Positions 18,716-61,350 of a stretch of 64,000 nt of DNA are shown here, in pieces. Made by a program: the position numbers and the translations under genes. Source of the stretch: Patescibacteria group bacterium (GTDB lineage: Bacteria > Patescibacteriota > Patescibacteriia > 2-02-FULL-49-11); the NCBI GenBank assembly GCA_041645165.1, contig JBAZQN010000011.1, positions 1,254-65,253 on the forward strand, in the 5' to 3' direction. The notes under the pieces were generated by a model. It made no database searches. It was given only the letters and a program-made list of their open reading frames with translations, and was not told where the DNA came from. Position 1 is the first letter of the stretch. Every line of letters starts with the position of its first letter.

Positions 18716-18784
18716 AGAGCCGCACTTGAACCAGAACGGTTGCTGTTGTTATTAATTGACCCCATGGCTATAGCATATTGAAAT

Positions 18785-19738: not shown

Positions 19739-19924
19739 AGGATAATACTTAATATGGTTTAGTTAATTATTTAGAGTATACCATATTAAGGAATTGGGTC
19801 AATTTCAGATATAAATTTGTCGTTTTTGGAGCTCCGCATCAAGTGCGGGGTAAACTCCGCGGAAAAAACACTATATTTCCCCTCTAAAAATAAAAAAGAA
19901 AAAATTTTATAAAAAATAATATTT

Positions 19925-20040
19925 CACATAACATTTGCGTATATCTGATGTTTTGTGGAGCGTAGCGGAGCAAAATATGGGTGTAGGCTCACGAAAGAGC
20001 CGTAGCCAGATATACGTTGTTAGCTGATGTATATGTTTTT
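19925..20040. repeat. attC-like palindrome A (gcgtatatctg … cagatatacg, then tGTTAGCTgatgtatatg)
   Basis: Its core gcgtagc…aaatatgggtg is shared with element C at 21588. Confidence 0.45.
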
Positions 20041-20095
20041 CCTTGTCGTTTATCCACCTCCGCCGAATACTCTGCAGTTCCGCTCGAGGAGGGGT

Positions 20096-20413
20096 TCATT
20101 TTTTGATTTTGTTGAACAATGCGGCAAACAACCAAACAGCAAGAATCGTCACAATGTTCCAGATAACTAAACCTGAAATAAAGTAGCCAAAGCTAAGAAA
20201 ATCTGATTTAAAAGATACATCGGTATGCAGAGAAAATTTCATAAATAGTTCCCTGCTTGGTGGATAGATTGCTACGCCGACATAACAGATTGTATAAACT
20301 ATACTTACCCACGCTGAGGCGATTTTTATCAAATGTTTTGAATTTATCATATTTTTAAAATTAATTACCATGTAAAATAATAGTTTTTTAATTTTGTTCG
20401 CGTTTGCTGGCAA
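20096..20413 (-). CDS. hypothetical small membrane protein
   Basis: 105 aa, three hydrophobic helices, AT-rich. Overlaps the next ORF by 26 nt. Confidence 0.45.
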   Translation of the reverse strand: MPANANKIKKLLFYMVINFKNMINSKHLIKIASAWVSIVYTICYVGVAIYPPSRELFMKFSLHTDVSFKSDFLSFGYFISGLVIWNIVTILAVWLFAALFNKIKK

Positions 20414-20966
20414 GATTAATGATGCAAACGTAGAAAATGTAAGACAGAATAGTAGCGGGAATATTGATAATGTTATAGACCAAATTATTTAGCTCATTTG
20501 GATTCAAATAATGCAACCTTTGAATTATTGGTGATGTTTCTCCTGTAAGATTTACAAGTTTGAGAGCTAATAGGATAATCACACCAATTAGCACAATCAG
20601 GATAAATTTTATTATCCATCTATAAACAAAAAGGTTGATAATATTTTTAAGTGTAAGAGATCTATGAAATAATTTCAGGATCAGTTTAGTGGCCAATATA
20701 ACTATAGTGACAATAACAAGAACACTTAGTAGCATCAACAATATAGCAACAACACCACCAAATAGTTTTGTCCCTAAACCAATGTGTGCATACTGAATAT
20801 TAAATTCTGCTATTTGGTTTAGTAGTTTGCTATAACCCGTAAACAAATTTAGTAGTATGGTTATCAAATAAAAGCCGACCAACCAGAGAATTAGTTTGAT
20901 AGATATTTTATTGTCGGGCAGTTGGTGAATAAATTGTTTAGGATGGAAGAGTAGCTTTATGTTCAT
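20388..20966 (-). CDS. hypothetical polytopic membrane protein
   Basis: 192 aa, five or six TM helices, AT-rich. Confidence 0.45.
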   Translation of the reverse strand: MNIKLLFHPKQFIHQLPDNKISIKLILWLVGFYLITILLNLFTGYSKLLNQIAEFNIQYAHIGLGTKLFGGVVAILLMLLSVLVIVTIVILATKLILKLFHRSLTLKNIINLFVYRWIIKFILIVLIGVIILLALKLVNLTGETSPIIQRLHYLNPNELNNLVYNIINIPATILSYIFYVCIINLASKREQN

Positions 20967-21050
20967 ATTTTTTTCGGTCTTTAAAAAATTAAAAAGGGCT
21001 CTTATAATAAAAAAGAAAAAATTTAATAAATGAAAACCGAGTAATATGTC

Positions 21051-21127
21051 GCCTAACGTTTCGGGATCAAGCGAAGTATTTTCGCTAGAAAATATTTTGC
21101 TTATCCCGTGTTATCGGATGTAATTTT
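21051..21127. repeat. attC-like palindrome B (GCCTAAC-gtttcgggat … atcccgtg-GTTATCG-gatgtaatttt)
   Basis: 77 bp. Follows the TAA stop of the 21133..21561 ORF by 6 nt on the coding strand. Confidence 0.5.
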
Positions 21128-21132
21128 ATTTT

Positions 21133-21561
21133 TTAACGAATAAATTTACAATAAGACTTAGAGCAATCAACGTTTGTCAATTTATTTGGATAATTAGAAT
21201 ATTCTTTTTTTACGTAATTAAAATAACGATTTAGTATGGTACGTCTTGCTTCTAATGCATTTTTTGAATAATCTGGATTATGTGGTTTGCCGGGATTATT
21301 TGTATCTTCTTCGTATATTAAAATATATTCATCATCATTAATTAATCCTAATTTTTTTGCATTAGAGAAGAAGGTTGGGCATCTAGATGTGTTATGATCA
21401 AAACAACTGTCATAAGAATCATGTTCACTGGCAATTAAAAAATCAACTTTTTTCTTGTCTTGCTCAGACAATTGTTCATAATTGGAATAAGATAAGTTAT
21501 TAGCAGAGCATCCTGATAGCAAGATTGTCACTAAAATAAAAATGAGTTGTTTGTTAAGCAT
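21133..21561 (-). CDS. hypothetical lipoprotein
   Basis: Signal peptide plus lipobox LLSGC. 142 aa. Confidence 0.5.
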   Translation of the reverse strand: MLNKQLIFILVTILLSGCSANNLSYSNYEQLSEQDKKKVDFLIASEHDSYDSCFDHNTSRCPTFFSNAKKLGLINDDEYILIYEEDTNNPGKPHNPDYSKNALEARRTILNRYFNYVKKEYSNYPNKLTNVDCSKSYCKFIR

Positions 21562-21587
21562 AAGTAAAAATTAGGATTAAATAATAT

Positions 21588-21681
21588 TATTTCCGATAAC
21601 GTCCGCGTGTATGCGATGTTTGCGTAGCAAATATGGGTGGAGCGACCGTAGGGAGCGTAACCGCATACACGCTGTTAGGCG
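21588..21681. repeat. attC-like palindrome C (cGATAAC-gtccgcgtgtatgcg … cgcatacacgc-tGTTAGGC)
   Basis: 94 bp. On the coding strand the TAA stop of the 21675..22493 ORF lies inside the GCCTAAC box. Confidence 0.55.
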
Positions 21682-22493
21682 ATGTAAATTTTAGACTTTT
21701 TTAATCTCGCAACAAATTCATCTTTTGTCATCACCACTTGTCTTACCTCTGGCTTTTCTCCCGTTGTCAAATATTTTTCCAGAGATCTCTTGTTGTATTG
21801 TAATGCTAAGTGTTGAACGGCTACAACGTCGCTATCGTCTGGCAAAGTATCTTCTATTGAAATTTCATCACCCAAGAGCAGTCTGGCTTTCCCTTCCATT
21901 TTTTTATTAAGTAGCCAAGATTTCATCATAATTCTGTCTGCCGTGATTTCTCCCGTTTCTAATTTAGCACCTATCGTTTGAAAGCCATCTATGATTTTAG
22001 AAATTAATTCTGCGCTTTTCACTCCCGTTGGTCTAATATGTAATGAAATTTCATCATCACCAGCTTTTTTGTATGCGATAACATCATTGACATGAACCAT
22101 GCCAGATCCTTCCTCAACCTCATCCGCTTTTCTGTTCCATTCAGCGAAAAATAGATTGGCAATTGGTGAAGAGGCTAATCTGTTGGCGAAGTTATCTCTG
22201 GAAAAATTATTTTCTTGACATTCCTGCAGGGCGGAATTAATTATTTGATATAATTCTTGTTTTGCTTCGGAATGTTGAATCTCTTCGCCTGAGCTACCCA
22301 ATCTAGAAACATAAAGATCAGCCATTCTTTCTGTAATTGCGCTTTTGTTTTCAGCGCCCTCGGCATGGAGTAAGTTTTGATATAGTTCAAATCCACCAGC
22401 AAATCTAATAAACGCAGGGTTTGATAAAACCATCTCCTTTGTTTTTTCTATTCCTTCTTGATGAATTTGTTGCGGTTGTTCGTTTTCTCCCAT
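21675..22493 (-). CDS. hypothetical protein (272 aa)
   Basis: Long AT-rich ORF with no recognised motif. Its stop is embedded in the repeat box. Confidence 0.45.
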   Translation of the reverse strand: MGENEQPQQIHQEGIEKTKEMVLSNPAFIRFAGGFELYQNLLHAEGAENKSAITERMADLYVSRLGSSGEEIQHSEAKQELYQIINSALQECQENNFSRDNFANRLASSPIANLFFAEWNRKADEVEEGSGMVHVNDVIAYKKAGDDEISLHIRPTGVKSAELISKIIDGFQTIGAKLETGEITADRIMMKSWLLNKKMEGKARLLLGDEISIEDTLPDDSDVVAVQHLALQYNKRSLEKYLTTGEKPEVRQVVMTKDEFVARLKKSKIYIA

Positions 22494-22504
22494 ATTTAAA
22501 AAAG

Positions 22505-22722
22505 TCTAAAATTTATTTCGCCTAACGTATCTGTGTATGAGAAGTCCCGCGCCATTGTAAAACGATTAATTCGTGGAACTTCTTACACAGTTATTTTATC
22601 AAATTAAATGTGGTATTAGCAATAGCGGGATTTGGGTGAAAAAAATATGGCGACCTTAAAATTTATATAAATGCCATATTTTTTGAACCTCATACACAGT
22701 GTTGTGCGATGTAAATTTTTTA
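22505..22722. repeat. attC-like palindrome D (aaaatttatttc-GCCTAAC-gtatctgtgtatgag … ctcatacacag-tGTTGTGC-gatgtaaatttt)
   Basis: About 215 bp with an unusually long central region. Its end motifs match B and C and the attI-like site. Confidence 0.45.
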
Positions 22723-22878
22723 TCCTCGTTTTTAATGGTATAAGCTTTATCTGTTCTAAAAGAAAATTTGATTTTTTGTCTTGGCTCAAAAAAGAGGGGT
22801 TAGGGGTGAATTTTTTGAGCCAAGACACATTAAAGAATTTTTATTTCAACTGCTTTTAGGATGTAACGATAACACAAC

Positions 22879-23430
22879 TTAGTCTTTAAAATCAAATTCA
22901 ATTTGGCTATCGCCGGGACGGATATATTGGGGATGAGGCCCGGTAAGATCAAAGCTTGCTTCGCAATATACTGTGGAGTTTTTTTCTTGAGATAAACGAG
23001 GAAAAGTAGCTGTTTGGACATGAGAGACAACAACATGCCACTGACTGTATAGTATATTTTGGTTTAGTAGTTTTTTTACCTTGCCCAAGCGTTCAAAATG
23101 CATGTTAACTATTGTTCCGTCGATAGTAATTGGCTGTTGAAATTTCATATTAAACTTGGTGGTATAAAATCTATTCTCTAATCCTGCTTTAGCAATATGT
23201 TTTAAAAATGCCTCACCTATATAACCCTGTAATTTATAACCACCGACATGGTCATCCTTATCTGGATGCATATGAGTTTTAATTTGTTCATCAAACTCAC
23301 TAAACTCAGATGAAGGTAAAACTTCGCTGGCCCGATTAAACGCAAGATCTACCTTCTTCTGATGTTCAGGGGTTTTGAGTACCTGGTCCCTAGTTGAACC
23401 GTAAAAATTTTCAGTATATTCTTTTGTCAT
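22879..23430 (-). CDS. hypothetical protein (183 aa)
   Basis: AT-rich ORF. The HMHPDKDDH segment is only loosely MBL-like, so no call is made. Confidence 0.4.
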   Translation of the reverse strand: MTKEYTENFYGSTRDQVLKTPEHQKKVDLAFNRASEVLPSSEFSEFDEQIKTHMHPDKDDHVGGYKLQGYIGEAFLKHIAKAGLENRFYTTKFNMKFQQPITIDGTIVNMHFERLGKVKKLLNQNILYSQWHVVVSHVQTATFPRLSQEKNSTVYCEASFDLTGPHPQYIRPGDSQIEFDFKD

Positions 23431-23450
23431 ATAAGAAAAATTACTATTTT

Positions 23451-24320
23451 TTAATTTTTACGAAATAAATTATGCCGAAATTCCGTACAAAGAGGCAGTT
23501 TAGTTTTATTAATTAAGTCAAGATTATCAGCTGTACAAATTCTGGCCTTAATACCGAATTTATGAAAGGCATTGATTAACCTTTGAAACGCTAGAATTCT
23601 TTTTCTAAATGGTAAAGTATAACCAAGTTTGGTTGTTACTTGTCTGACGGCAGTCATTTTGCTAATGGCTTTCAAAATCAACTTATCATTTAAATCAACG
23701 ATCCGTTGTTTCTGTGGCTCCGGTAATACGCCGGTACCAATGATGCATCGTTTTACTCCAATCCCGCTTAATACCCGTGGAAGATCTTCAATACTTTCAT
23801 TTTTTTCATAAATATCAAACCACGGCATCACCACGACGATAACTGGTACGCCGCCTCTAATTAATTTTCTTATTATTTCCAGTCTTTTGATAATTGGAGC
23901 CGCACCGGGCTCTAAAAGAGAAAGAAGTCTCTGGTTTAGACTCGGTAATGATATTTGAACAACAACGCGATGTTTATTTGTTATTAACAATTTGATAGAT
24001 TTATTAGGAATCACTTGTTTAGTGACTATTAATGGCACAAAATCTTCTTTTCTTTTCCAAACATGTTCTAACAGATAATGGGTCAGGTCGCAATTGGCGG
24101 GCAAAAAACAGTCAGCGACGGCGCTAAAGTAAGTTCCCTTAAACTTCTGTAAATTTTTCAAAACCTCTTTCCGGCCAGAGACGATTATTTGATCACTATC
24201 AAATTGTTTCCGGTGAAGATCACAATACAAACAGGGTTTTGGACAACGTTTCCCGAAGACCACCACTGGTACAGCCTGACAAGGATACATTGGTTTCACT
24301 AATATAATATCGTTTGTCAT
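23451..24320 (-). CDS. radical SAM domain protein (SplB-like CxxxCxxC)
   Basis: Motif CPKPCLYC near the N-terminus. 289 aa, AT-rich. Confidence 0.55.
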   Translation of the reverse strand: MTNDIILVKPMYPCQAVPVVVFGKRCPKPCLYCDLHRKQFDSDQIIVSGRKEVLKNLQKFKGTYFSAVADCFLPANCDLTHYLLEHVWKRKEDFVPLIVTKQVIPNKSIKLLITNKHRVVVQISLPSLNQRLLSLLEPGAAPIIKRLEIIRKLIRGGVPVIVVVMPWFDIYEKNESIEDLPRVLSGIGVKRCIIGTGVLPEPQKQRIVDLNDKLILKAISKMTAVRQVTTKLGYTLPFRKRILAFQRLINAFHKFGIKARICTADNLDLINKTKLPLCTEFRHNLFRKN

Positions 24321-28404: not shown

Positions 28405-28500
28405 AAATCCTCCCGCCTCAGCGGGATCCCGCTTACCTTAAGAAAATAGAATCAAGGTGCGGGACAATGACCAATGAAATTCCAAATCCCAAATTCAAAA
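28405..28500. repeat. MITE-C copy (gcgggatcccgcttaccttaagaaaatagaatcaaggtgcgggac) plus an aaatcccaaat heptamer tract
   Basis: The reverse complement recurs at 54284-54340. The tract overlaps the start of ORF 28474. Confidence 0.75.
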
Positions 28501-29076
28501 TCCAAAGTGGTAATAATTGTGACGAGGAAGATTTTCTTAAGTGTTATCATCCTATTTTTTCTTTATTTTTTTATCCGCGATTTGAATCCTTCTGGGGCAC
28601 GAGATATAAAATATGATTTTTGCAGGCCTTCCCCGTATGTCTCTGAACTCTCGCCGCTGGGAAGAGTGCTTGCTATAGAAAAGACAGAAGATTTTTGTTA
28701 CCAACGCATGGTGATAGATCCGGTGTACGTAGATGTGCGCCTGCCGCAGTCATATGATGCAGTGACCGTGAGCGCGGTATATAAAAAACCCAGGAGCCAA
28801 ACGTTGTCGCTCGGGGTGAGAGCTTCGCTCTACGAGTGGCAATGGAAGATGGAAACGCTTATCAGTGCCGTACACAATGATTGGCAAACGCAGGAGGTCC
28901 ATTTTGATATAACTGCGCTGCCGCTTGAGCGTCGCCGTATCCGTTTTATTATCTCATCCCCCGGTTTGGGGGATTCAGGCAAGGAAATTGAATTTCGTGA
29001 ATTGACATTTAAATTTAATAAGCAGCCGTTTAACTTAGGCATGGTTAAGAGATGGCTTAAGTCGTTTGTGCGATAA
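28474..29076 (+). CDS. hypothetical membrane-anchored protein
   Basis: 200 aa with an N-terminal TM helix. The annotated start lies in repeat DNA, so the true start is uncertain. Confidence 0.4.
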   Translation: MKFQIPNSKSKVVIIVTRKIFLSVIILFFLYFFIRDLNPSGARDIKYDFCRPSPYVSELSPLGRVLAIEKTEDFCYQRMVIDPVYVDVRLPQSYDAVTVSAVYKKPRSQTLSLGVRASLYEWQWKMETLISAVHNDWQTQEVHFDITALPLERRRIRFIISSPGLGDSGKEIEFRELTFKFNKQPFNLGMVKRWLKSFVR

Positions 29077-30284: not shown

Positions 30285-30400
30285 ATAAGCCCCAAACCCC
30301 AATACCCAATGACCAATAAAATCCCAAATCCCAATATTTCAAATTGGTTATTTGGATTTTGAGTTTTATTGGAAATTGGGATTTGGACATTGGGATTTAA
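30285..30400. repeat. heptamer-periodic quasi-palindrome (ccccaaa/ccccaat/acccaat/gaccaat/aaaatcc… mirrored by …ttgggatttgg)
   Basis: Same family as 59150-59262 (shared string ggattttattggaaatt.gggatttgg) and the tracts at 28450 and 54215. Confidence 0.8.
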
Positions 30401-30403
30401 TCA

Positions 30404-30823
30404 ATGCCTATGCCCGACTGTCTTTTTTGCAAAATCGGCACACACGAAATCCAATCGAAAGTGGTGCACGAGGATAGCGAGACGATTGCATTCCTCGACA
30501 TTCATCCCTTGTCTGCGGGGCACACCGTGCTTGTTTCGAAAACCCACACGCCTACGGTGACGACCTTACCCTCGCATGCGCTTTCTCCGCTCATCGTGGC
30601 GGTGCAGCGCGTCACCCATATTATAGAATCAGCCCTCAAACCTGACGGCTTTAATATCGGATGGAATCATGGTGAAGCAGGAGGGCAGACTATAGGGCAT
30701 CTGCATATCCACATAATCCCCCGGTGGCAGGGCGACGGCGGAGGGTCCATCCATACCATCGTGCACAATCCGCCCGCGGAAGATTTGGAGTCGATTTATA
30801 AAAAATTAAAATCAGTCACATGA
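30404..30823 (+). CDS. HIT-family (histidine triad) hydrolase
   Basis: Histidine triad HLHIHIIP and N-terminal CLFCKI. Confidence 0.85.
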   Translation: MPMPDCLFCKIGTHEIQSKVVHEDSETIAFLDIHPLSAGHTVLVSKTHTPTVTTLPSHALSPLIVAVQRVTHIIESALKPDGFNIGWNHGEAGGQTIGHLHIHIIPRWQGDGGGSIHTIVHNPPAEDLESIYKKLKSVT

Positions 30824-30921
30824 GGTATTAGGCATTATGTATCAGGTATTAGGGAGTTGAAGTGCATAATACGTAATACGAAATACGTGATACGAAACCT
30901 TTGTACTATTAATATTTTAAT

Positions 30922-32175: not shown

Positions 32176-32251
32176 TTGTTTTCGTATTAGTGAACGGCTT
32201 GATTAAGAAATGTCAATCCGTAATACGTGATACGTAATACTTAATACCCCA

Positions 32252-34130: not shown

Positions 34131-34154
34131 AATTATTGTGTGTAAAAATGCTCG

Positions 34155-34240
34155 TGATGGGACGATTTTATTCGGCGTCGCGATCTAGCAGCTTGATGCG
34201 CCTTTCCGCCTCAAAAATCGCCCATCCCTCGCTTCATAGG
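34155..34240 (+). repeat. repeat family S copy 3
   Basis: Outer stem gatggg…cccatc. The internal acgatttt/aaaatcgc change is compensated on both arms. Confidence 0.8.
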
Positions 34241-41600: not shown

Positions 41601-41700
41601 GGTAATTGAAAATCAAAATGTAAAATTCAAAACTCAAAATTATGGAGTCCCGCATTAGCGGGACGTAATACCATCATTTTGATTTTTGATTTTTGGATTT
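41600..41700. repeat. heptamer-periodic quasi-palindrome (aaaatca repeats) around the hairpin gagtcccgcattagcgggac
   Basis: Mirror arms aatcaaaatgtaaaattcaaaactcaaaat / attttgatttttgatttttggatttt. Related to 45565-45660. Confidence 0.75.
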
Positions 41701-42730
41701 TAACTTTATTTATATGTCCGTATTTTACGTTTCAGGGAGGCCAAATATTATTGTGACCGGCGCGGCAGGGTTTTTGGGATCGCATCTTGTCGAGATGCTT
41801 CTCAAAAGCGCGAACGTGATCGGCATAGATAATTTTATCACCGGAGACGAACGAAATATCGACACCTTCCTTTCTGACCCTCATTTTGAATTTATCCGCC
41901 ATGATCTGACCGTGCCCATTGATGTGCGGGTATTGCCAGAGCTTAAAAAATTTAAAGCAGCGGTTCAAGGAATCCAGCAGGTCTATCACCTCGCATGCCC
42001 GACCTCGCCAAAAGAATATAACCGCATACCGATTGAGACGCTTAATGCCAATGCCTATGCCACTAAAAATATGCTTGACTTGGCACAGCAGCATAAGGCA
42101 AGATTCCTGTTCACCTCCTCGAGTGCGGTCTATGGCGAACCGAGCGAAAATGCCCCGGTGCCGGAGAAGTGGTGGGGGTACGTCGACCCTGTCGGGCCTC
42201 GTTCGGCGTATAATGAGGGAAAGCGTTTTGCCGAAGCGATCTGCGCCAATTACCGGAATACCTACAGCATGGAGGTGGTAATTGTGAGGATTTTCAATAC
42301 GTTCGGGCCGCGGATGAAGCTCAATGACGGCCGTTTAATTCCTGATCTTATACGGGCGGCATTCAGGAACGAGCCGTTGGTGATCAATGGAGATAAAAAT
42401 GCGATTTCGACATTTTGTTATGTCACCGACATGATCGATGGCATATTGAAAGCGATGGAGGCGAATATGAATCAGCCGGTGAATCTGGGAAGCGATGACC
42501 CAAAACCGATCCGTGAAGTCGCAGAGATGATAGTGCGCCTTGCGAAGTCTACATCTATCATTGAATATCAACCGCACTTGCCCTATACCTCCCGCCAGCT
42601 TACCCCTGATATTGGGGTTGCGCGCAATGAATTAAGCTGGTGGCCCATGGTGGCGCTGGAGGAGGGATTGAGCCAAACAGTCGAATATATGCGCTCCATG
42701 ACGCATGTGTATGATATTGAAAGAGAGTAG
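41693..42730 (+). CDS. UDP-glucuronate decarboxylase (UXS-type NAD-dependent epimerase/dehydratase)
   Basis: VTGAAGFLGSHL, FEFIRHDLTVP, YHLACPTSP, YGEP…YNEGKR match UXS closely. The start may be the ATG at 41714. Confidence 0.8.
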   Translation: MDFNFIYMSVFYVSGRPNIIVTGAAGFLGSHLVEMLLKSANVIGIDNFITGDERNIDTFLSDPHFEFIRHDLTVPIDVRVLPELKKFKAAVQGIQQVYHLACPTSPKEYNRIPIETLNANAYATKNMLDLAQQHKARFLFTSSSAVYGEPSENAPVPEKWWGYVDPVGPRSAYNEGKRFAEAICANYRNTYSMEVVIVRIFNTFGPRMKLNDGRLIPDLIRAAFRNEPLVINGDKNAISTFCYVTDMIDGILKAMEANMNQPVNLGSDDPKPIREVAEMIVRLAKSTSIIEYQPHLPYTSRQLTPDIGVARNELSWWPMVALEEGLSQTVEYMRSMTHVYDIERE

Positions 42731-42734
42731 AAGG

Positions 42735-42875
42735 AAAATATAAATCGAAGTTCTAAATCCGAAACCCTAAACCCTAAACACCCCATCGACTCGGCTCAGG
42801 GTGACAAAGCGGTTGTCATGGTGAGCCGAGTCGAACCATGTTTAGAGTTTAGAGCTTAGAATTTAGAGTTTATTC
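42735..42875. repeat. heptamer-periodic quasi-palindrome (ctaaatc/cgaaacc/ctaaacc… mirrored by gtttaga repeats) with central hairpin cgactcggctca…tgagccgagtcg
   Basis: Arms homologous to 55305-55445. Sits upstream of metK. Confidence 0.8.
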
Positions 42876-44652: not shown

Positions 44653-45597
44653 ATGGAAATAATTGTCACCGGCGGAGCGGGGTTTATCGGATCGCATGTT
44701 GTGGATGCGCTGATTGGGCGTGGATTTCAGGTAACGGTGATTGATAATCTTATTACTGGCAAGCGGGCAAACGTGCACAAAATAGCTAAGCTGATTAGGT
44801 TGGATGTCAGAAACCCTAAACTTAATAATTTATTTAAAACAATAAAACCTGTATACGTTTTTCATCTTGCAGCGCAAATGGACGTGAAAAAATCATTGAG
44901 AGAGCCGCTTTTTGACGCGAGTGTGAACATATTAGGATCGCTCAACGTGATTAAATCAGCTGCTGATGTTGGGGTGAAAAAATTTATCTTTACCTCAACT
45001 GGCGGCGCAGTCTACGGCGACACATCAATTATTCCCACACCCGAAACAGTACCCGAGGCGCCCATTTCACCATATGGGGTGGCAAAGCTCGCGGTAGATA
45101 AATACCTCCATCAATTTTGGCACGTTGCAGGCATGCCCTATGTGAGCTTGAGATTTGGCAACGTGTATGGACCGCGCCAGCGTGCTGACGGCGAGGCGGG
45201 CGTGGTGGCAATCTTTGCAGGAAGGCTCGTACGCGGATTGCCCTGCGCGATAAATGGGAGCGGTAAACAAACGCGCGATTTCGTATATGTGGGCGATGTA
45301 GTAGATGCGGCTATGAAGGCAATGTATAAACCTTTTGTGGGCACGGTCAACATTGCAACAGGGAAGGAATCATCGGTAAATACGGTATATATGTTGTTGG
45401 CGAAAAACATACAGACGCGTTTGAAGGCCACACATAATCCTGCGATTCAGGGGGAGCAAATGCGCAGCGTGCTAGATTGGAAAAAAGCGAAAAAAGTGCT
45501 AGGATGGAAGCCGAAGGTGAATTTAGAGGAAGGATTGAGGAGAACTATTGCATGGCATTGTCATAATGCAAAAATCAAAAATCAAAAATCAAAATGA
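44653..45597 (+). CDS. NAD-dependent epimerase/dehydratase (GalE-like)
   Basis: VTGGAGFIGSHV, YGVAK (YxxxK). 314 aa. Confidence 0.8.
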   Translation: MEIIVTGGAGFIGSHVVDALIGRGFQVTVIDNLITGKRANVHKIAKLIRLDVRNPKLNNLFKTIKPVYVFHLAAQMDVKKSLREPLFDASVNILGSLNVIKSAADVGVKKFIFTSTGGAVYGDTSIIPTPETVPEAPISPYGVAKLAVDKYLHQFWHVAGMPYVSLRFGNVYGPRQRADGEAGVVAIFAGRLVRGLPCAINGSGKQTRDFVYVGDVVDAAMKAMYKPFVGTVNIATGKESSVNTVYMLLAKNIQTRLKATHNPAIQGEQMRSVLDWKKAKKVLGWKPKVNLEEGLRRTIAWHCHNAKIKNQKSK

Positions 45598-45660
45598 TAG
45601 ATCAAAATTTATAAATTTTGTATTCTCATTTTGCATTTTGAGATTTACATTTTGATTTAT
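45565..45660. repeat. heptamer-periodic quasi-palindrome ((aaaaatc)n … attttgatttt)
   Basis: Overlaps the epimerase C-terminus (…KIKNQKSK). Confidence 0.75.
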
Positions 45661-46336
45661 GACTGTGGTAGTTGTAATTCCCGCTTTTAACGAATCTCGG
45701 ACCATTGCCGAAGTTATCCATGGCTGTTTGCAGCACGCGAGTGAGGTCATGGTCATAAATGACGGTTCGTGCGATGATACTGCGCTGCGCGCGCGTCAGG
45801 CAGGCGCTGCTGTTTTTGAGCATATGGTGAACAGGGGATATGGCGCGGCATTGCAAACCGGCATACAGGCGGCGCTTATGCGCGGTGCGGACATCATCGT
45901 GACCATTGATGCGGACGGCCAGCATGAGCCGGAAGAGATCATAAAGGTTATTGAGCCGCTCCAAAAAGGCGAAGCTGATATCGTGATAGGCGACAGGTTC
46001 GGTACGCAGTCAAAGCGCGAAGGAATGAGTTTATTAAGAAAAGCCTACATTACCGCGGGGAACCTCCTCACATGGATCCTCTACGGCGTATGGCTCTCTG
46101 ATACCCAGTCGGGATTCCGCGCTTATACGCGCAATGCGTTAAGAAATTTGCAGACTCATGCACAGGGTATGGAATTTTCTTCTGAAATCATTGGAGAAGC
46201 GGCTAGACTGGGTTTGAGAATTGCGACTATCCCCATCACAGTGCGCTATACTGACTATTCGATAGGAAAGGGGCAGAATATATCTACAGGTATTGGGACT
46301 GCATTTCGGCTGTTCTTAAGAAGAATTTTGAGATAA
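45659..46336 (+). CDS. GT2 glycosyltransferase (polyprenol-phosphate sugar synthase/DPM1-like)
   Basis: VVIPAFNESRTI … VINDGSCDDT … DADGQH. Confidence 0.8.
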   Translation: MTVVVVIPAFNESRTIAEVIHGCLQHASEVMVINDGSCDDTALRARQAGAAVFEHMVNRGYGAALQTGIQAALMRGADIIVTIDADGQHEPEEIIKVIEPLQKGEADIVIGDRFGTQSKREGMSLLRKAYITAGNLLTWILYGVWLSDTQSGFRAYTRNALRNLQTHAQGMEFSSEIIGEAARLGLRIATIPITVRYTDYSIGKGQNISTGIGTAFRLFLRRILR

Positions 46337-46337: not shown

Positions 46338-46450
46338 ATAAAGCGTCGAGGTATAAGAAACAAGATACAAGAAACAAACATCAAGCTACAAGATACAATA
46401 ACCAATATTGGTGTTTGTGAGTTGGTTATTGGTGATTATTTGATGATTGT
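46338..46450. repeat. heptamer-periodic quasi-palindrome (aagaaac/aagatac … mirrored gtttcttgg)
   Basis: A related tract lies at 8985-9020. Confidence 0.7.
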
Positions 46451-46453: not shown

Positions 46454-46858
46454 TTGGTAATTGATTATTTACATATGGTTTTCCAGATCATCGCGTGCGC
46501 GTTAATCATATTGATTGTGGGGCGGATCGCATGGCAATTCCGCCGAGGCACGATCAGCGGGAAAGAATTTTTCTTTTGGTCGTTTTTTTGGGTGCTTGCC
46601 GCGGCGGCCATACTCGTGCCCAACGCCTTAACCATGATCGCGAATATATTAGGCATCGGGCGGGGGACTGACCTCGCATTTTACGGCTCATTCGTCATCG
46701 TCGCCTATGTGCTCTTCAGAATTGTGGTACGGATGGATAAGATGGAAAGGGATATCACAAAAGTAGTGAGACATTTGGCGCTTGATGATACGCATCAGGT
46801 ATCACGTATTAAGTATCAGGGGACTGACCGCGATACGCTTGAGAATCGTGATACGTAA
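46454..46858 (+). CDS. small 4-TM membrane protein (DUF2304-like, GT2-associated); the C-terminal ~25 aa are encoded by a taatac heptamer repeat
   Basis: Hydrophobic profile. Nucleotides 46775-46875 are the cgtgatacgtaatacctaatacc repeat. Confidence 0.4.
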   Translation: MVIDYLHMVFQIIACALIILIVGRIAWQFRRGTISGKEFFFWSFFWVLAAAAILVPNALTMIANILGIGRGTDLAFYGSFVIVAYVLFRIVVRMDKMERDITKVVRHLALDDTHQVSRIKYQGTDRDTLENRDT

Positions 46859-46889
46859 TACCTAATACCTAATACTTACTATTATCACC

Positions 46890-48078: not shown

Positions 48079-49494
48079 ATGCCATACCGAATCGCGCATA
48101 TCACCCCCGTGTACCCGCCTTATGCAGGCGGTATTGGGGTTGTGGCGAAAAATATGGCGGGAGGGTTGGCAGGAAGAAGATGGCAAGTGGAAACGTTTAC
48201 GCCCACGTTGGATAACTCCACCCAACCTCCTCTTAAGTTAAGAGGAGGGGAAGGAGGAGTTATGGATAATAAAATAACGTATCTCAAACCATGGTTGCAT
48301 GTGGGCAATGCGGCGCTCGTGCCGCAATTAAGGAAATTAGAAGGATACGATATCATTCATCTGCATTATCCTTTTTTCGGCGGGGCTGAATTTGTTCTTC
48401 TGGGTATAATTTTTCAACGATTTAATTCCGCGTTTTTCAGCGATAAGGCCACGCGTGACGTTCCGCGTAAGTCAGCGTTCATTTTACAATACCATCATGA
48501 CGCAGACGCTAAAGGTTTGAAGGGGATGATGTTTAAACTTTATGACAGGATTGTGCTCCCGCGTTTGATCACGCGCGCCGACAGGGTGATCGTATCAGCG
48601 ATGGATTATGCGCAACATTCACGCATTGCGAAATACATAAGCGATAAGTTTGTCGAAATACCGTTTGGGGTTGATGCGAAACGATTTGAACCGTTAGGTA
48701 GTCATTCTGAACGTAGTGAAGAATCTCCCGTGCATACGGGCACACCGCTGGCATTCGCCAGAGATCCTTCCCCCGACTCGCGGGGTCAGGATGACAAATC
48801 CGTTATTGTTCTCTTCGTCGGTTCCCTCGACCGCGCGCATTGGTTTAAAGGGTTAGAGGTATTACTTCACGCGTTCGCCATACTGAAACAAGAAAATGAA
48901 CAAAATCGTTTAAAATCTACTCATTTAAACCCTACCCTAAATACCACGAGCCAACTTCGCCATAGTAGCCAAAGGCTACGTCGGCTGAATCGTGGTAATC
49001 CTGCCTGCGCAGGCAGGAGGGAGGGATTGAATTTGAAATGTTTGGTTATAGGCGAAGGTAATCTTAAAGAGAAATATAAAAAAATGGCACAAGATTTAGG
49101 GATTCAAGACCAAGTGCAGTTTTTTGGCAACGTGTCTCAAACGCAATTGCCTGATTATTACCGCAACGCGGACCTTTTTGTGTTTCCTTCGGTATCGCGC
49201 GCGGAAGCATTCGGATTGGTGGCGCTTGAAGCAATGGCGTCAGGTTTGCCCGTCATCGTAAGCGATCTGCCGGGAGTGCGGACGCTGGTGGAAGAGGGGA
49301 TAAACGGATTTAAGGTGCCTGTGAATGATCCACGTGCGTTGGCGCGACGCATTCAGGATCTGATTGAAGATAAGTCACTACGCGGCAGTATGGGACAAAA
49401 AAGCAGAGAAAAGGTTTTAGAGGGTTATACATGGGATAAGGCTATTGACAAGATAGAGAGAGTGTACTTAGATATGTTGGTAAATAAACCATGA
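48079..49494 (+). CDS. GT4 glycosyltransferase with three in-frame repeat-derived insertions
   Basis: N-terminus MPYRIAHITPVYPPYAGGIG. C-terminus EAFGLVALEAMASGLPVIVSD (Glycos_transf_1). Insertions: 48216-48273 (HP2 hairpin plus ggaggagttATG), 48701-48794 (RPE-like), about 48900-49030 (palindromes gccatagtagcc…ggctacg and cctgcctgcgcaggcagg). Confidence 0.75.
   Translation: MPYRIAHITPVYPPYAGGIGVVAKNMAGGLAGRRWQVETFTPTLDNSTQPPLKLRGGEGGVMDNKITYLKPWLHVGNAALVPQLRKLEGYDIIHLHYPFFGGAEFVLLGIIFQRFNSAFFSDKATRDVPRKSAFILQYHHDADAKGLKGMMFKLYDRIVLPRLITRADRVIVSAMDYAQHSRIAKYISDKFVEIPFGVDAKRFEPLGSHSERSEESPVHTGTPLAFARDPSPDSRGQDDKSVIVLFVGSLDRAHWFKGLEVLLHAFAILKQENEQNRLKSTHLNPTLNTTSQLRHSSQRLRRLNRGNPACAGRREGLNLKCLVIGEGNLKEKYKKMAQDLGIQDQVQFFGNVSQTQLPDYYRNADLFVFPSVSRAEAFGLVALEAMASGLPVIVSDLPGVRTLVEEGINGFKVPVNDPRALARRIQDLIEDKSLRGSMGQKSREKVLEGYTWDKAIDKIERVYLDMLVNKP
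48216..48273 (+). repeat. HP2-SD-ATG element (cctcctcttaagttaagaggagg ggaaggaggagttATG) inserted in-frame inside the GT4 gene
   Basis: Same module that precedes the DUF559 and hydrogenase-large-subunit starts. It creates an internal SD plus ATG at 48271. Confidence 0.8.
48701..48794 (+). repeat. RPE-like palindromic element, copy 2 (in-frame in GT4)
   Basis: gtcattctgaacgtagtgaagaatctccc…agatccttcccccgactcgcggggtcaggatgac encodes HSERSEESPVHTGTPLAFARDPSPDSRGQDD. Confidence 0.85.
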
Positions 49495-52208: not shown

Positions 52209-52502
52209 GTATCTCATACGTACGCGCTCACTGTCCATCAACACCCCCACCACACCTCCCCCTTTATATCATCAAGATATGGCGAAGCCATAGGGGGAGG
52301 ACAAGGCGTGTGGTCTCCCCCTTAGGCGCCGTAAAAAAATAACATATCCCGCCATCTACGCCGTACGTCAACAAAATAAGGACAAACCTATGGGACAAGT
52401 GAAATGTTATTTTTTTAAGCGCCCTTATCAAGGGGGAGATCAAGAGGGGGGTTTAAACCGCGAGGATGGCGATGCCCCCAGTGAGCGCGTACATCTCATA
52501 CC
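52209..52502. repeat. MITE-A copy 2 (TIRs ggtatctcatacgtacgcgctcactg / cagtgagcgcgtacatctcatacc) with nested 25-bp and 100-bp elements
   Basis: Its interior aligns with copy 1 except for the inserted catcaagatatggcgaagccata (also at 1466) and the 100-bp repeat (also at 7186). Confidence 0.75.
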
Positions 52503-53323: not shown

Positions 53324-53497
53324 AGATTCCGATTTTCAACGTCATTCCCGCCCCGTATCGCGGTACGGGGCAAGCTCCGGCGGGAATCCAGACGCCGTCC
53401 TCGACCGAGATCGGGGAAAATCAAAAGAAAACACCGATTTTTTGTTTGTTTTTTGTCTGGATTCCAGATCAGGTCTGGAATGACATTATCGGAATTA
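53324..53497 (-). repeat. MITE-B copy 2, between hrcA and grpE
   Basis: Reverse complement of 17868-18038 at about 90% identity. Confidence 0.85.
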
Positions 53498-54214: not shown

Positions 54215-54340
54215 AAATCCCAAACCTGAAATCCCAATATAAATTGGAATTTAAGATTTATTTGGAATTTGTCCCGCACCTTGAATCTTTTTTTCTAAGG
54301 TAAGCGGGATCCCGCCGGAGCGGGAGATATTAAGATTTGG
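54215..54340. repeat. aaatcccaa heptamer tract plus MITE-C copy (gtcccgcaccttgaatctttttttctaaggtaagcgggatcccgc)
   Basis: Reverse complement of 28405-28460. Mirror arms aaatcccaa…ttggaatttaagattt. Confidence 0.75.
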
Positions 54341-54997: not shown

Positions 54998-55324
54998 GTG
55001 ATCAGGCGTATGACACCAAAAGAAAACAATAAAAATGAAGCATTGATGCTTTTACGGGAATGCCCTTCATGCCGTTCGCGGTATACCCACACATCGGTAC
55101 AGGTGCTTTCTGCCAATGAGAAAGGGTCGCTGGTATCGTTTACCTGCGGTGAGTGCCGACTTGATGTCTTGGTAGCGGTATCGCCGATGCCTTTCGGGCT
55201 GGTGGGCACTGGGATGCCGACTGACTGCGCGACCGACGAAGTGATGAGATTTATGGATTCAAACGAAATTACCGAAGATGATGTGATAGAGGCGCATACG
55301 TTGCTTGAAAATCCGAAATCCTAA
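54998..55324 (+). CDS. hypothetical zinc-ribbon protein
   Basis: CPSCRS…CGECRL double CxxC. 108 aa. Confidence 0.4.
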   Translation: MIRRMTPKENNKNEALMLLRECPSCRSRYTHTSVQVLSANEKGSLVSFTCGECRLDVLVAVSPMPFGLVGTGMPTDCATDEVMRFMDSNEITEDDVIEAHTLLENPKS

Positions 55325-55445
55325 ATCCGAAATCCTAAACAAGCTCAAAACACAAAATTCGAAATATTCCTATCCCTTAATATTTCGATGATTTGAATCT
55401 CGAATTTTGGATTTGTTTAGGGTTTAGAGTTTAGAATTTAGTATT
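55305..55445. repeat. heptamer-periodic quasi-palindrome upstream of dnaK (ctaaatc/cgaaatc/ctaaaca … gtttagg/gtttaga/gtttaga)
   Basis: Homologous to 42735-42875. Confidence 0.8.
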
Positions 55446-55452
55446 TATATAT

Positions 55453-57363
55453 TTGAGTATGTCAAAAATTATAGGCATAGACCTCGGTACTACCAATTCA
55501 GCGGTTGCCGTCATTGAAGGCGGCAGCCCAAAAATATTAGAAAACAGCGAAGGCGCGCGCACCACGCCCTCCGTTGTGGCCGTCAATAAGAACGGCGAGC
55601 GGTTCGTGGGGATGACGGCGAAACGCCAGGCAGTCACCAATCCCCAAAATACCATTTACTCGGTAAAGCGCCTTATCGGGCGCAGATACGATGACCCCGA
55701 AGTGCAGCGTTCGCAAAAAACCCTGCCTTACAGAATCGTGAAGTCGGGTGAAGGCGTGAAAGTGGCCATGGCAGAGAAGGAATATTCCCCACAGGAGATT
55801 TCCGCAATGATTTTGCAGAAGATCAAGGCGGACGTGGAGGCAAGACTGGGCGAAAAGGTGACGGAGGCGGTGATCACCTGCCCGGCGTATTTTGACGATT
55901 CGCAGCGTAAAGCAACGAAAGAAGCAGGCGAGATCGCGGGATTTACCGTGAAAAGGGTGCTCAATGAACCTACGGCTGCGGCGCTGGCGTATGGATTCCA
56001 GAAGAAGAAGGATGAAAAGATCGCCGTGTATGATTTGGGCGGCGGCACCTATGACATTTCCATTCTAGAAGTATCCAGCGATACCGTGGAGGTAAAGGCC
56101 ACCAACGGGGACACGCACCTTGGAGGGGATGATTTTGACCAAAGGGTCATTGATTGGATTATTGCAGAATTCAAGAAGGATCAAGGCATCGACCTTTCGA
56201 AAGACACGCTCTCGCTCCAGCGCATCAAAGAGGCCGCGGAAAAGGCGAAGATCGAGCTGTCCACGGCCATGGAAACGGAAATTAACCAGCCGTTTATCAC
56301 CTCTGGCGCTGACGGCCCAAAGCATCTGCTCTTGAAGCTGACCCGGGCGAAATATGAGGATCTGGTGGGCGATCTGATTGAAAAAACCAAAGAGCCGATG
56401 AAGAAAGCATTGAGCGACGCAAAGCTCACCGTGAAGGACATTGATGAAATTGTCATGGTGGGAGGAATGACGAGAATGCCCAAAGTATTAGCGATGGTGG
56501 AAGAGTTTTTCGGGAAGAAGCCGCATATTGGCGTAAACCCCGATGAGGTCGTGGCGGCAGGCGCGGCGGTTCAAGCAGGCATCATGCAGGGTGAGGTGAA
56601 AGACGTATTACTGCTTGATGTGACTCCTCTTACGCTCGGCATTGAAACGCTGGGCAGCGTGGCCACGCCTATCATTCAGAGGAATACCACCGTCCCGACG
56701 AAAAAATCACAGGTCTTTTCGACCGCCGCTGACGGGCAAACCTCCGTGGAGGTGCACGTGGTGCAGGGAGAGCGCCCCTTAGCGCACGATAATAAGAGTT
56801 TGGGGAAATTCATTCTTGACGGCATTCCTCCCTCGCCGCGCGGGATCCCGCAGGTTGAGGTTACCTTTGACATTGACGCGAACGGCATACTCCATGTCAC
56901 CGCAAAAGATCGCGCCACGGGCAAAGAGCAGAAAATCACCATCACCGCGTCCACCGGCCTTTCCAAAGATGAGATTGAGCGGATGAAAAAAGAAGCGGAA
57001 GCGCATGCCGTTGACGACGCGAAAAAGAAAGAGCAGATCGAATTAAAGAATACTGCCGACAGCATGGTCTATACCACCGAAAAGACCTTGCGCGATGCGG
57101 GCGACAAGGTATCGGCAGAGGTGAAGAAGGGGATCGAGGAGAAGGTGGAGGCGCTCAAAAAGGTGAAAGACGGCGACGACACCGATGCGATAAAGAAGGC
57201 AACCGATGCTCTCTCTCAGGAAATCCAAAAGGTAGGCGAACAGCTTTATAAAGCCGCCGCGGAAGCGAAAGGAAATACGGAGGGAGAGGTGAAGGCAGAA
57301 GATAAACAGGAGGATAAAAAAACTGTAGATGCGGAGTACAAGGATGTGAAGGATGATAAATAA
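55453..57363 (+). CDS. dnaK: molecular chaperone DnaK (Hsp70)
   Basis: [18 protein letters not shown], and full-length Hsp70 domain structure. Confidence 0.95.
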
Positions 57364-57364: not shown

Positions 57365-57450
57365 GACGTATCCCGTATTATGTATTACGTTATGTCGTGA
57401 TATCTATATACGTAATACCTAATACCTAATACCTAATACTTCAACCACTA
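57365..57450. repeat. heptamer repeat tract (cgtaatacctaatacctaatacctaatac)
   Basis: Same word family as 30835-30905, 32180-32250 and 46775-46875. Confidence 0.8.
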
Positions 57451-57755: not shown

Positions 57756-57766
57756 CTTCGTTCGTC

Positions 57767-57848
57767 CTGGACAATTTTCTCGGCGGCGCGATCTAGCAGC
57801 TTGATGCGCCAGACCGCCTCGTAAATTGCCAGGACTCACTTTTAGGGA
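57767..57848 (+). repeat. repeat family S copy 4
   Basis: Outer stem cctgg…ccagg. Confidence 0.8.
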
Positions 57849-59149: not shown

Positions 59150-59262
59150 AAAATCCAAATGTCAAATAAATGTCCAATATTCAATTCCCAATGACCAATT
59201 TTCGGATTTGAGGGTTTGGATTTTATTGGAAATTTGAAATTGGGATTTGGGATTTAACGACA
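59150..59262. repeat. heptamer-periodic quasi-palindrome (aaatccaaat … cccaatgaccaat … ggattttattggaaatttgaaattgggatttggg)
   Basis: Homologous to 30285-30400. Confidence 0.8.
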
Positions 59263-59919: not shown

Positions 59920-61350
59920 TTACTTTCTTTTTATAACTTGTCCTTCAGGAGTATCCTCGATGATATAGCCTTTTGCAGTAAGAGTCTTCCTTAAAACGTC
60001 GGCATCGGCGAATTTTTTTTGTTGCCTTAAAAGTTCGCGTTGTGCCACCAGCTCTCTTATATCCTCTGGCAAATCCTTAAGGTCTATTCTCGCGCTTACT
60101 GCGTGTGCCAAGTCTAGTCCGAGTATAGCATCAAATTTAAGCAGGCTCGCTTTTTTCGCGGCAGCTGGATAGTCAGATTTTATAAGATCCCATACTACCG
60201 AAAGCGCTTGAGGGAGGTTCAAATCGTCATTTATCGCGTCCATAAAACGCTGCTCATATTCTGCACATCCGATTTTAGGCTCATCCAGTAGTGCTGTTGT
60301 TTCTTTTAGATTTTTAAGCGCGGTTGCAGCGGCATCGAGCGCTTCCCATGAAAAATTTAATTTCTGCCGGTAATGGGCTGTAAAGGTAAAGTAGCGGTAT
60401 ATGAGCGGATCGTAACCCTTATCTATGAGAGTCTGTAGCCGGAGGAGATTGCCTTCTGATTTTCCCATTCTCCCCTCGTTAATTTGCAAAAATTCTCCGT
60501 GCACCCACCAGCGCGCGAGGGGCTTTCCTGTAGCCGCTTCTGCTTGCGCGATTTCATTGGTGTGATGGACGGGAATATGGTCAATGCCGCCCGCATGGAT
60601 GTCAAACGTTTCCCCCAGGTATTTCATGCTCATGGCAGAGCACTCGATGTGCCAGCCGGGGAACCCTATGCCCCAGGGAGAGGGCCATTCCATTAACCTT
60701 TTGTGATGTTTTTCATTATCTGCGTTGATCTGCGTTTTCGATCTGCGTTGATCTGCGTCGTGTGAAAATTTCCACAATGCAAAATCGGTCGGATTTCTTT
60801 TGCCCTTTACCATCTCAATTCTTGCGCCCGCCCTAAGGCCTTCGATATCAAGCCGTGCCAGCGCGCCATAGTGGGGGAATTTTGAAGTGTCAAAATAGAC
60901 ACCATCGCCAGCCACATAGGTAAAACCTTTCTGCTCCAATTTTTGGATGAGCTCGATTTGTTCTTTAATATGGTCAGTCGCCTTGCACCAGATATTGGGC
61001 TCAATAATATTGAGGCTCTTCAGGTCTTCCTTGAACGCGTCCGTATAGTACGCGGCAATTTCCCAGACTGTCTTGCCTTCGCGTCGCGCCCCTTTCATCA
61101 TCTTATCTTCACCCTCATCTGCGTCTGACGTGAGGTGTCCCACATCAGTAATATTCATGACGTGGTTCATTTGGTAGCCATTTGCCGTTATGACCCTTTT
61201 AAGAATATCTTCAGTGATGTAGGTCCTCAAATTGCCGATATGCGCATAGTCATAGACCGTGGGGCCACAAGTATAAAGACCCACGTGAGGGGGATTAATG
61301 GGTTTGAATTCTTCTTTTTTACGCGTAAGGGTGTTGTAGAGCTTGAGCAT
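59920..61350 (-). CDS. cysS: cysteine--tRNA ligase with an in-frame tandem-palindrome insertion
   Basis: HIGN ([19 protein letters not shown]), KMGKSEGN (KMSKS), and [17 protein letters not shown] zinc site. Nucleotides 60718-60760 (atctgcgttgatctgcg twice) encode an extra [20 protein letters not shown] segment. Confidence 0.9.
60718..60760. repeat. tandem atctgcgttgatctgcg palindrome units inside cysS
   Basis: The same 17-mer family occurs at 818-834 and 906-922 in the rsmH-ftsL spacer. Confidence 0.75.

Follow-up and report, generated by a model that had tools for sequence, protein, structure and literature searches.

The cysS gene and its expanded loop

The window is a 64 kb stretch of Patescibacteria DNA that carries on its minus strand the gene cysS, encoding a cysteinyl-tRNA synthetase (CysRS). 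Within the gene lies a short array of heptamers with the core ATCTGCG, which has near-copies in the spacer between rsmH and an ftsL-like open reading frame (ORF). An earlier note on this DNA had described the array as a tandem repeat inserted in frame into cysS; that observation is confirmed, and the interpretation as a repeat insertion is supported. Repeat coordinates are given on the plus strand. The features at cysS are as follows.

59920–61350, minus strand: cysS ORF, CysRS of 476 amino acids (aa), with catalytic and zinc-binding residues intact
60691–60768, minus strand: expanded loop, residues 195–220, between LWK and EWPSPWG; 26 aa against a modal 10 aa
60718–60758, plus strand: '2+2' element of 41 nucleotides (nt), ATCTGCG TTG ATCTGCG TTTTCG ATCTGCG TTG ATCTGCG T

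The 476-aa protein is 100% identical to a record found in NCBI, JGI, Logan and ENA, annotated as cysteine--tRNA ligase of a Patescibacteria group bacterium. Its precomputed Pfam domains are PF01406, PF09190 and PF23493 (tRNA-synt_1e, DALR_2 and CysS_C), and solved CysRS structures match over residues 1–476 (3sp1, E=6e-110; E. coli 1li5, E=3e-96). The columns that are invariant across 23 CysRS are all kept: C28, H37–N40, W233–H234, E236–C237, H262–E266 and K297–S298. The HIGH-type motif, here HIGN (37–40), and the KMSKS-type motif, which has GKS (296–298), both fall in invariant columns, as do the zinc/cysteine-site residues C28, C237 (of HIECS), H262 and E266. The equivalent E. coli ligands, in the 1LI5/1U0B structures, are C28, C209, H234 and E238.

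The loop between LWK and EWxSPWG is 10 aa long (FSPxxxKRQM) in 90 of the 120 closest CysRS. The window loop exceeds this length by 16 aa and the array encodes 14 of the loop residues, so that the expansion reported earlier is real and its size, given as roughly 20 residues, was too high. In an alignment with E. coli CysRS the insert replaces a short MSKEGE-PS segment ending at about residue 193. From the 1LI5/1U0B structures this site is presumably the junction of the CP insertion with the second half of the Rossmann fold. The WPSPWG strand is intact directly after the insert. An AlphaFold2 model built on the CysRS alignment has a mean pLDDT of 84.6 and a pTM of 0.82; predicted pLDDT falls below 50 at residues 199–215, the array-encoded segment and its immediate C-terminal flank, between confidently predicted strands, and at one other short segment (171–177). 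The insert is therefore predicted by the model to sit in a disordered and structurally permissive surface loop.

Structure of the array

The 17-mer ATCTGCGTTGATCTGCG occurs exactly at 60718–60734 and 60741–60757 on the plus strand, the non-coding strand of cysS, in agreement with the tandem units previously placed at 60718–60760. Both copies extend to 18 nt with an added T, the 18-mers are 100% identical and their starts lie 23 nt apart. Tandem Repeats Finder reports a period of 10 with 3.8 copies at 60718–60758. Four ATCTGCG cores are present, at 60718, 60728, 60741 and 60751, with periods of 10, 13 and 10 nt; the period is not constant, and the arrangement is not confined to a single locus. 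The coding-strand sequence of the array is GAC GCA GAT CAA CGC AGA TCG AAA ACG CAG ATC AAC GCA GAT and specifies residues 198–211 (14 aa). Because the copies are spaced 23 nt apart, the two halves are translated in different frames (DADQRRS and TQINAD), and the repetition is therefore one of DNA and not of peptide. The array is stop-free in 5 of the 6 frames. It had also been described as a palindrome, which does not hold for the cysS copy: this is a direct repeat that folds no better than shuffled sequence (z = -0.85).

With up to three mismatches allowed the 17-mer has four matches in the 64 kb, where 0.22 would be expected; all are on the plus strand and fall at two loci separated by 60 kb, and none of 100 shuffles reached four. 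Beyond cysS the only matches are at 813–829 (one mismatch) and 904–920 (two mismatches), which are the arms of the rsmH spacer. The earlier statement that cysS and the spacer share the same 17-mer is accordingly right as to near-copies at these positions and wrong as to identity. The bare heptamer ATCTGCG is not enriched in the window (15 occurrences, 9.75 expected). An explanation through GATC and Dam was dropped, the frequency of GATC in the window being normal (0.91 of expectation) and the cluster unexceptional.

The rsmH–ftsL spacer

The second locus lies between rsmH (133–798, PF01795) and a downstream unassigned, ftsL-like ORF of 125 aa (986–1363), which is followed by ftsI (1541–3304). 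Its modules, and one related module elsewhere, are listed here.

805–933, plus strand: composite hairpin in the spacer between rsmH and the ftsL-like ORF; a single long fold, -67 kcal/mol, z = -8.1
813–829, plus strand: left arm pair ATCTGCGTTGATCTACG, one mismatch to the cysS 17-mer
830–903, plus strand: inner cargo of ~74 nt, with closing stem TTCGGCCC/GGGCCGAA and hairpins at 835–852 and 879–896
904–920, plus strand: right arm pair ATCTGCGTAGATCAGCG, two mismatches to the cysS 17-mer
7140–7157, plus strand: second, intergenic copy of the hairpin module CCCCGTCATTCGACGGGG (first copy 835–852), two mismatches; two matches in all, 0.05 expected

The spacer shares the 2+2 architecture of the cysS copy, with the ~74 nt of modules occupying the place of the 6-nt TTTTCG. 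Both copies carry direct and not inverted arms; the spacer arms are able to pair because of their point differences. Rfam gave only noise for 805–933 (mir-1420, E=0.87), and an Rfam 15 scan of the whole window found only a tRNA at 5023–5094.

Orthologous cysS sites

The DNA of the nearest CysRS relatives was compared at the insert site, with aa identities computed outside the inserts.

L002 and L003, 91% aa identity: a single unit, CAC-A-ACGCAGAT-TAT; exactly 33 nt shorter, equal to three units
L001, 90% aa identity: four units as in the window, plus a 102-nt module bounded by CCCGCC...GGCGGG
L004 and L005, 85% and 82% aa identity: coding strand GATCTGCGT GAATCTGCGT CTTATCTGCGT CCATCTGCG, preceded by the hairpin CCTCCCCATAAAAAGGGGGAGG...
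P0006, 71% aa identity: no insert
4911–4953 of the window, plus strand: intergenic hairpin module (CCTCCCCTTAAAAAGGGGGAGGATGAAGG...GTGTCGAT) downstream of murF, related by blastn to L004/L005

Within the clade at 80% identity or more, the loop shows some extension in all five members. The hairpin-bounded module of L001 interrupts one of the units, directly behind its first base when read on the ATCTGCG strand; no relation was found between this module and the 74-nt cargo of the window's spacer. In L004 and L005 the array consists of four ATCTGCG units in the orientation opposite to that of the window, together with a hairpin module that adjoins it in frame and to which the window's 4911–4953 module is 91% identical over 43 nt (blastn). 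L005 cysS carries this module at two sites. An equal-length segment of unrelated sequence, as a lineage-specific loop would give, was not seen in the relatives: they show a lower unit number, a nested module and the opposite orientation, and these states, together with the enolase and leuS copies described below, support a repeat insertion.

The cysS genes of L001 (6001–7578) and L004 (1076–2575) also have a second insertion of 14 aa (NADGVFSGEQCRTI and NTDGTLSGEPSRTI, respectively) between KYLG and DIHAGG, whose DNA holds one ACGCTGAT unit. The two are not each other's closest kin, and the insertion is absent from the window, L002 and L005.

At the same CysRS loop three other Patescibacteria have palindromic DNA that is unrelated to the array: CGCCCGCCTCGC...GCGGGCG in P0053, CCCTCTCCCC-TGGC-GGGAGAG in P0017 and GAGCACT...AGTGCTC in P0069. 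The P0053 loop peptide had been considered as array-derived and was rejected, its DNA being an unrelated GC-rich hairpin. Judging from these sequences, the CysRS loop is an apparent hotspot that has repeatedly captured repeat DNA.

It is unlikely that the array arose locally, growing in situ from a native ACGCAGAT seed through replication slippage or tandem duplication, with the likeness to the spacer due to coincidence or later gene conversion. Such an origin would account for the single unit at the L002 site, and the window, L001 and L002 form a trichotomy in which growth from one unit is as readable as loss. The two 18-mers are 100% identical, as a recent duplication predicts, and the ancestral RQM codons (CGN CAG ATG) already contain CAGAT. 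However, no single step of 10, 13 or 23 nt keeps the frame. The deletions possible between units are of 10, 13, 23 and 33 nt, and only the last preserves the frame, which is the one observed, in L002. Against a local origin stand also the near-identical 2+2 arrangement in the enolase and leuS contigs and in the spacer 60 kb away, and the opposite orientation of the array in sister lineages. Furthermore, nearly all metagenome matches to the 17-mer, among the at least 120 listed, lie within arrays of the same ATCTGCG family.

The loop peptides are unlike even among close relatives, a 14-aa segment in the window, NAD alone, and PPHKKGEDKGEGVDLRESASYLRPSA, because orientation and frame differ. This bears on a reading in which the insert is an adaptive feature of the CysRS protein, for example a charged surface loop for binding tRNA or a partner, for which the repeat was raw material. 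The loop adjoins the zinc/cysteine-binding strand, it is extended in all five clade members, and insertion-bearing enolases are common in Patescibacteria, all of which would be in keeping with a role in the protein. Nevertheless, the unrelated peptides, the predicted disorder of the region and the dominance of the insert-free ground state make an adaptive loop very unlikely.

Less probable still is a repeat-induced misassembly or binning artefact. The contig comes from a metagenome-assembled genome and the related enolase genes look mosaic, but the identical 476-aa protein is present in four sources (NCBI, JGI, Logan and ENA), the ORF is intact and in frame, and the independent assembly L001 (ENA) holds the same four units.

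The element in other genes and contigs

Metagenome contigs scanned for ATCTGCGTTGATCTRCG gave at least 120 matches, and among the matches listed two low-GC contigs have the sequence deep within long ORFs. One of them (L394) encodes a LeuRS with tRNA-synt_1, editing and anticodon domains, in which ...AAQIEAQINADKEQINADSQRQSAFSQRQSAFS... lies in the stretch that separates the editing domain from the second catalytic half. The other (L506) encodes an enolase with SQINADGKQINADK in frame within the Enolase_C barrel, and its homologs place it in the Wolfebacteria/Paceibacterota part of Patescibacteria. When aligned in the orientation of the repeat, the cysS, leuS and enolase copies share TATCTGCGTT[G/A]ATCTGC-N5/6-ATCTGCGTTGATCTGCG. 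A search of proteins with a chimeric QINAD peptide as query gave no match.

The enolase loop has a ground state of 15–19 aa, and array-type peptides (INAD, INTD, ADLR) occur there in 25 of 112 homologs. In a Candidatus Wolfebacteria enolase (L511) the DNA reads CGCTGAT-TTA-CGCGGAT-TAAAAA-CGCGGAT-TAA-CGCGGAT, again 2+2 around a T-rich 6-nt centre but with ATCCGCG units. In three orthologs that differ by 9–17% elsewhere the enolase insert has 0/45 nt differences, within genes that are mosaics of identical and divergent blocks. Pairwise differences among the L506, L512 and L513 genes alternate between blocks of 0/60 and blocks of more than 20/60 nt, a pattern that indicates either that the strains often recombine homologously or that the metagenome assemblies are chimeric.

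Related arrays are also in frame in the DnaE HhH domain of an Anaerolineae contig; in this domain 135 aa cover 88 positions of the profile. Arrays of the ATCTGCG family likewise lie in frame in a BT4734-like (primase-type) protein of 823 aa (L093, 4170–6641; …AAERKSAKSAESARE…SQISQMTQINERS…).

A wider family of ATCTGCG arrays

A scan of the genome collection for three ATCTGCG units with gaps of 2–7 nt gave at least 120 matches, and the viral collection likewise at least 120. Arrays were found in bacteria, archaea and viral contigs. The taxa among the matches listed include Verrucomicrobiota, Planctomycetota, Chloroflexota, Acidobacteriota, cyanobacteria, Bacteroidota, Proteobacteria, Methanosarcinales and Methanoperedens, and arrays occur also in Geothrix fuzhouensis, which can be cultured, and in the genomes and plasmids of Nostocales. 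Raw abundance was rejected as evidence, shuffled heptamers having also given 38 and 105 viral matches. The arrays are nonetheless qualitatively distinct from these controls in spacer variability, inverted partners and a period of 9–10, as the following values show.

Identical spacers: 21–27% of ATCTGCG arrays, 61–85% of control heptamers
Gap lengths: 2–3 nt in ATCTGCG arrays (period 9–10, non-coding); mostly equal gaps of 2–5 nt in controls (period 9–12)
Two or more inverted units within 150 nt upstream: 28% of ATCTGCG arrays, 0% of controls

Exactly three units are present in 141 of 160 arrays, with T following 75% of the internal units and G following 79% of the last ones. Neighbouring arrays of like architecture use ATCCGTG, ATCTGTG, ATCAGCG, ATCGGCG or ATTCGCG. 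The ATCTGCG arrays are mostly intergenic, and in other taxa convergent inverted arms flank a short, genome-specific interior. Among annotated plasmids nine records matched, most of them from cyanobacteria; in eight the match overlaps no annotated feature, and in one it falls at a gene for a cupin-domain protein. The arrays have no orientation bias relative to flanking ORFs (31/25/21/20), nor relative to GC skew or replication strand (39/77 and 26/50). No tRNA was found at 60 array loci, and DUF559 is not enriched near the arrays. The family appears to be undescribed, judging from negative searches of a literature library and of Rfam: the array sequences were found in no paper, keyword searches gave only general papers on MITEs, Rickettsia palindromic elements (RPEs) and heptamer repeats, and eight array loci had no gathering-score match in Rfam.

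These properties suggest that the main rival to a dispersed repeat is a functional binding site on duplex DNA. A protein multimer would sit on the four heptamers along one face of the helix (10, 13 and 10 bp), and selection would keep the heptamers and not the peptide. The conserved heptamers with their varying spacers, the predominance of three-unit arrays, the 9–10 bp period and the terminal G are what such a cis-acting site would give, and the lack of transcription or replication-strand bias is as predicted for a duplex site. The unchanged enolase insert would point the same way, but it stands within a mosaic of identical and divergent blocks and may be due to recombination or chimeric assembly. 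However, neither a linked gene nor a candidate binding protein was found near the arrays; one conserved factor would hardly account for a single heptamer shared by bacteria, archaea and viral contigs; and at the cysS site both unit number and orientation vary among close relatives. On balance a cis-acting site is rather unlikely.

Probable origin and fate of the insert

The 41-nt array is probably a copy of a small dispersed repeat that is tolerated in a permissive CysRS loop as neutral or selfish DNA. In this view each of its four decamer-like units has ATCTGCG as core, two units stand on either side of a short central spacer, and the point of entry into cysS would be a solvent-exposed loop where the CP insertion ends, directly ahead of the strand of the WPSPWG/HIEC zinc site. 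It could survive there because its length preserves the frame, it is stop-free in 5 of 6 frames and its peptide forms a disordered loop. Once inserted, recombination or slippage between units may remove or add units, and the centre of the element seems to accept nested hairpin modules, of 102 nt in L001 and of 74 nt in the rsmH–ftsL copy. Most likely the element does nothing for CysRS and is filtered by selection on the reading frame, in the manner of RPEs. We infer the direction of events, the neutrality of the insert and its mode of arrival from these comparisons; arrival by recombination or by copying of the template-switch type is favoured over cut-and-paste transposition because no transposase signature was found.

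Several observations weigh against a dispersed repeat of this kind. The mobility of the element is deduced from its distribution and not from a mechanism. No terminal inverted repeats flank the cysS copy, and at 60 convergent pairs in other taxa no target-site duplication was found, the longest flanking repeat being 0 nt (40 pairs), 1 nt (17) or 2 nt (3), as expected by chance. No transposase common to the array loci was found in the ~8–15 kb fetched around each. All-versus-all clustering of 2472 ORFs from 120 such loci gave no linked gene and only generic families, the recurrent ones being ABC transporters, response regulators and AMP-ligases. Copy number is low where measurable, with two loci in the 64 kb window and one in a 21 kb Wolfebacteria contig. 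The trichotomy of the window, L001 and L002 gives no polarity for gain against loss, and the enolase insert is kept in orthologs down to 73% identity. Finally, across phyla the heptamers are conserved and the spacers variable, a pattern like that of a protein-binding site, and therefore 'functionless' may be the wrong description at the DNA level.

It is possible, though doubtful, that the cysS insert represents, for Patescibacteria, a pan-prokaryotic class of micro-repeats not described so far, made of 3–4 ATCYGYG heptamers at 9–10 bp spacing with freely varying spacers. If real, such a class would often occur as convergent pairs, would lack target-site duplications, a linked transposase and strand bias, and would be found in frame in cysS, leuS, eno and dnaE. 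It would then either be spread or regenerated by a new mechanism, or represent the binding array of a very widely shared factor. A heptamer-array family that is truly widespread and unnamed would be a common feature of prokaryotic intergenic DNA, and a source of many spurious ORFs, that is still without explanation.

On the reading as a dispersed repeat, 'selfish DNA inside essential genes', best known from Rickettsia, would extend to the reduced genomes of Patescibacteria with a build that differs from the known cases, namely direct heptamer arrays that accept nested hairpin modules. Surface loops such as the CP/Rossmann junction of CysRS and the barrel loop of enolase would be recurrent landing sites of repeat DNA, and so natural markers of permissive sites. 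Variation in the length of such loops can confuse orthology, annotation and structure prediction in proteins of candidate phyla.

Other repeats and features of the window

The window also contains dozens of intergenic tandem arrays with 7-nt units (AAGATAC, AATACGT, ATACCTA, AAATCCG/AAACCCT, CAAAAAT, GTTTAGA and others), often as inverted pairs or palindromes, for example at 45560–45663. They resemble the heptamer repeats of cyanobacteria and Beggiatoaceae, to the extent that these are mentioned in PMC4853749. Examples, and the other repeats, are as follows.

7-nt tandem arrays: 8985–9018, 28477–28506, 30368–30398, 30823–30897, 32215–32247, 41604–41701, 42753–42872
Further 7-nt tandem arrays: 45569–45658, 46355–46398, 46790–46875, 55309–55460, 57408–57439, 59225–59255
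Polypyrimidine/polypurine hairpin family (TAACTCACCCCAGCCCTCTCTTATCCTAAGAGAGGGAG and relatives): 9557–9609, 10514–10566, 10627–10679, 11077–11129, 14031–14156, 48226–48248
83-nt element with inverted ends (GGGAACTGACAATTTT ... AAAAATTGCAGTCCCC), four copies 61–84% identical: 3348–3430, 15721–15803, 34152–34234, 57760–57842
108-nt direct repeat, 98% identical, 45 kb apart: 7182–7289 and 52321–52428
Inverted repeat pair of 98 nt (94% complementary): 17932–18029 and 53334–53431
Inverted repeat pair of 86 nt (80%): 28410–28495 and 54241–54326

The CysRS loop DNA of P0017 is similar in style to the polypyrimidine/polypurine hairpins. The first copy of the 83-nt element lies between ftsI and murF, and the element has no Rfam match. 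The 108-nt repeat covers intergenic DNA and an ORF start (ATG at 7251). The long-range inverted repeats, 25–35 kb apart, could serve as substrates for inversion. A 123-aa DUF559 (Vsr/REase-like) gene at 10708–11079 is flanked by 143-nt direct repeats (10569–10711 and 11019–11161, 99% identical) that hold the 3' end of the ORF and the hairpin modules CCCTCTCTTATCCTAAGAGAGGG and CCTCCTCTTAAGGTAAGAGGAGG; the locus (10569–11161) looks like a small selfish gene cassette. At 16001–24000 the GC content falls to 38%, from 46–50% in the rest of the window, which may mark foreign or specialised DNA. Over the whole window CTAG reaches 0.16 of expectation, a strong avoidance, and GCGC/CGCG are over-represented by a factor of 2.4–2.8.

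Comparison with known repeat systems

Coding variable number tandem repeats and other in-frame tandem repeats are known, for example from contingency genes and Borg elements. The cysS element is like them in that unit number differs between close relatives (one against four) and the encoded segment is disordered. It differs in having a period that is neither constant nor a multiple of three, and in that the same array occurs at unrelated loci and genes in both orientations.

The short tandem heptamer repeats (STRRs) of cyanobacteria offer another parallel. Elhai and colleagues are said to have described, in 2008, such heptamers together with small dispersed repeats of 21–27 nt, found nested within short tandem repeats as well as within one another. 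Heptamer arrays are numerous in the window too, and ATCTGCG arrays occur in Nostocales. By these descriptions the two are set apart in sequence and in unit length, which is 7 nt contiguous in the STRRs and a 7-nt core plus a 2–3 nt spacer here.

The spacer composite (805–933), with its arm pairs and two hairpins of which one recurs at 7140, is like REP, BIME and REPIN elements in being a mosaic of short repeat modules. Further likenesses to REPs and BIMEs are the absence of target-site duplication and the long hairpins formed by convergent pairs. In contrast, each REP is one imperfect palindrome whose head is of a conserved GTAG type, RAYT transposases are dedicated to REPs, and REPs lie essentially outside genes, whereas here the arms are tandem heptamers. 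No RAYT is evident in the 64-kb window, a statement confined to the window since no genome-wide search was made. MITEs are similar in small size, in the convergent inverted arms around a short interior seen in other taxa, and in occasional in-frame fusions. The arrays differ from them in the lack of target-site duplication at the 60 pairs, and no autonomous partner was found within the ~8–15 kb fetched per locus. About 28% of arrays in other taxa are convergent, and the two window copies have direct arms.

In-frame small repeats within genes are documented for RPEs, ERIC and some MITEs (PMC10969869). The RPEs (Ogata et al., 2000), in the summary given in PMC10969869, are palindromes of ~100–150 bp that encode a conserved peptide and occur only in Rickettsia. 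As far as that summary describes them, they are like the present element in being small non-coding repeats at several loci, both intergenic and in frame in unrelated housekeeping genes, with the ORF preserved, the peptide placed where the fold tolerates it, and presence or absence varying among close relatives. The cysS element differs in that it is only ~41 nt long and consists of four direct heptamer units that are not palindromic by themselves, only the spacer composite being so. It is also read in varied frames and orientations, and its motif family extends over many phyla. With no palindrome, no conserved peptide and no terminal inverted repeats with target-site duplication, the cysS element fails the structural definition of the RPE, ERIC and MITE families. 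In-frame repeat DNA within essential genes is a known phenomenon to which the cysS element adds a structure of its own, and the literature searches found no description of this phenomenon for Patescibacteria.

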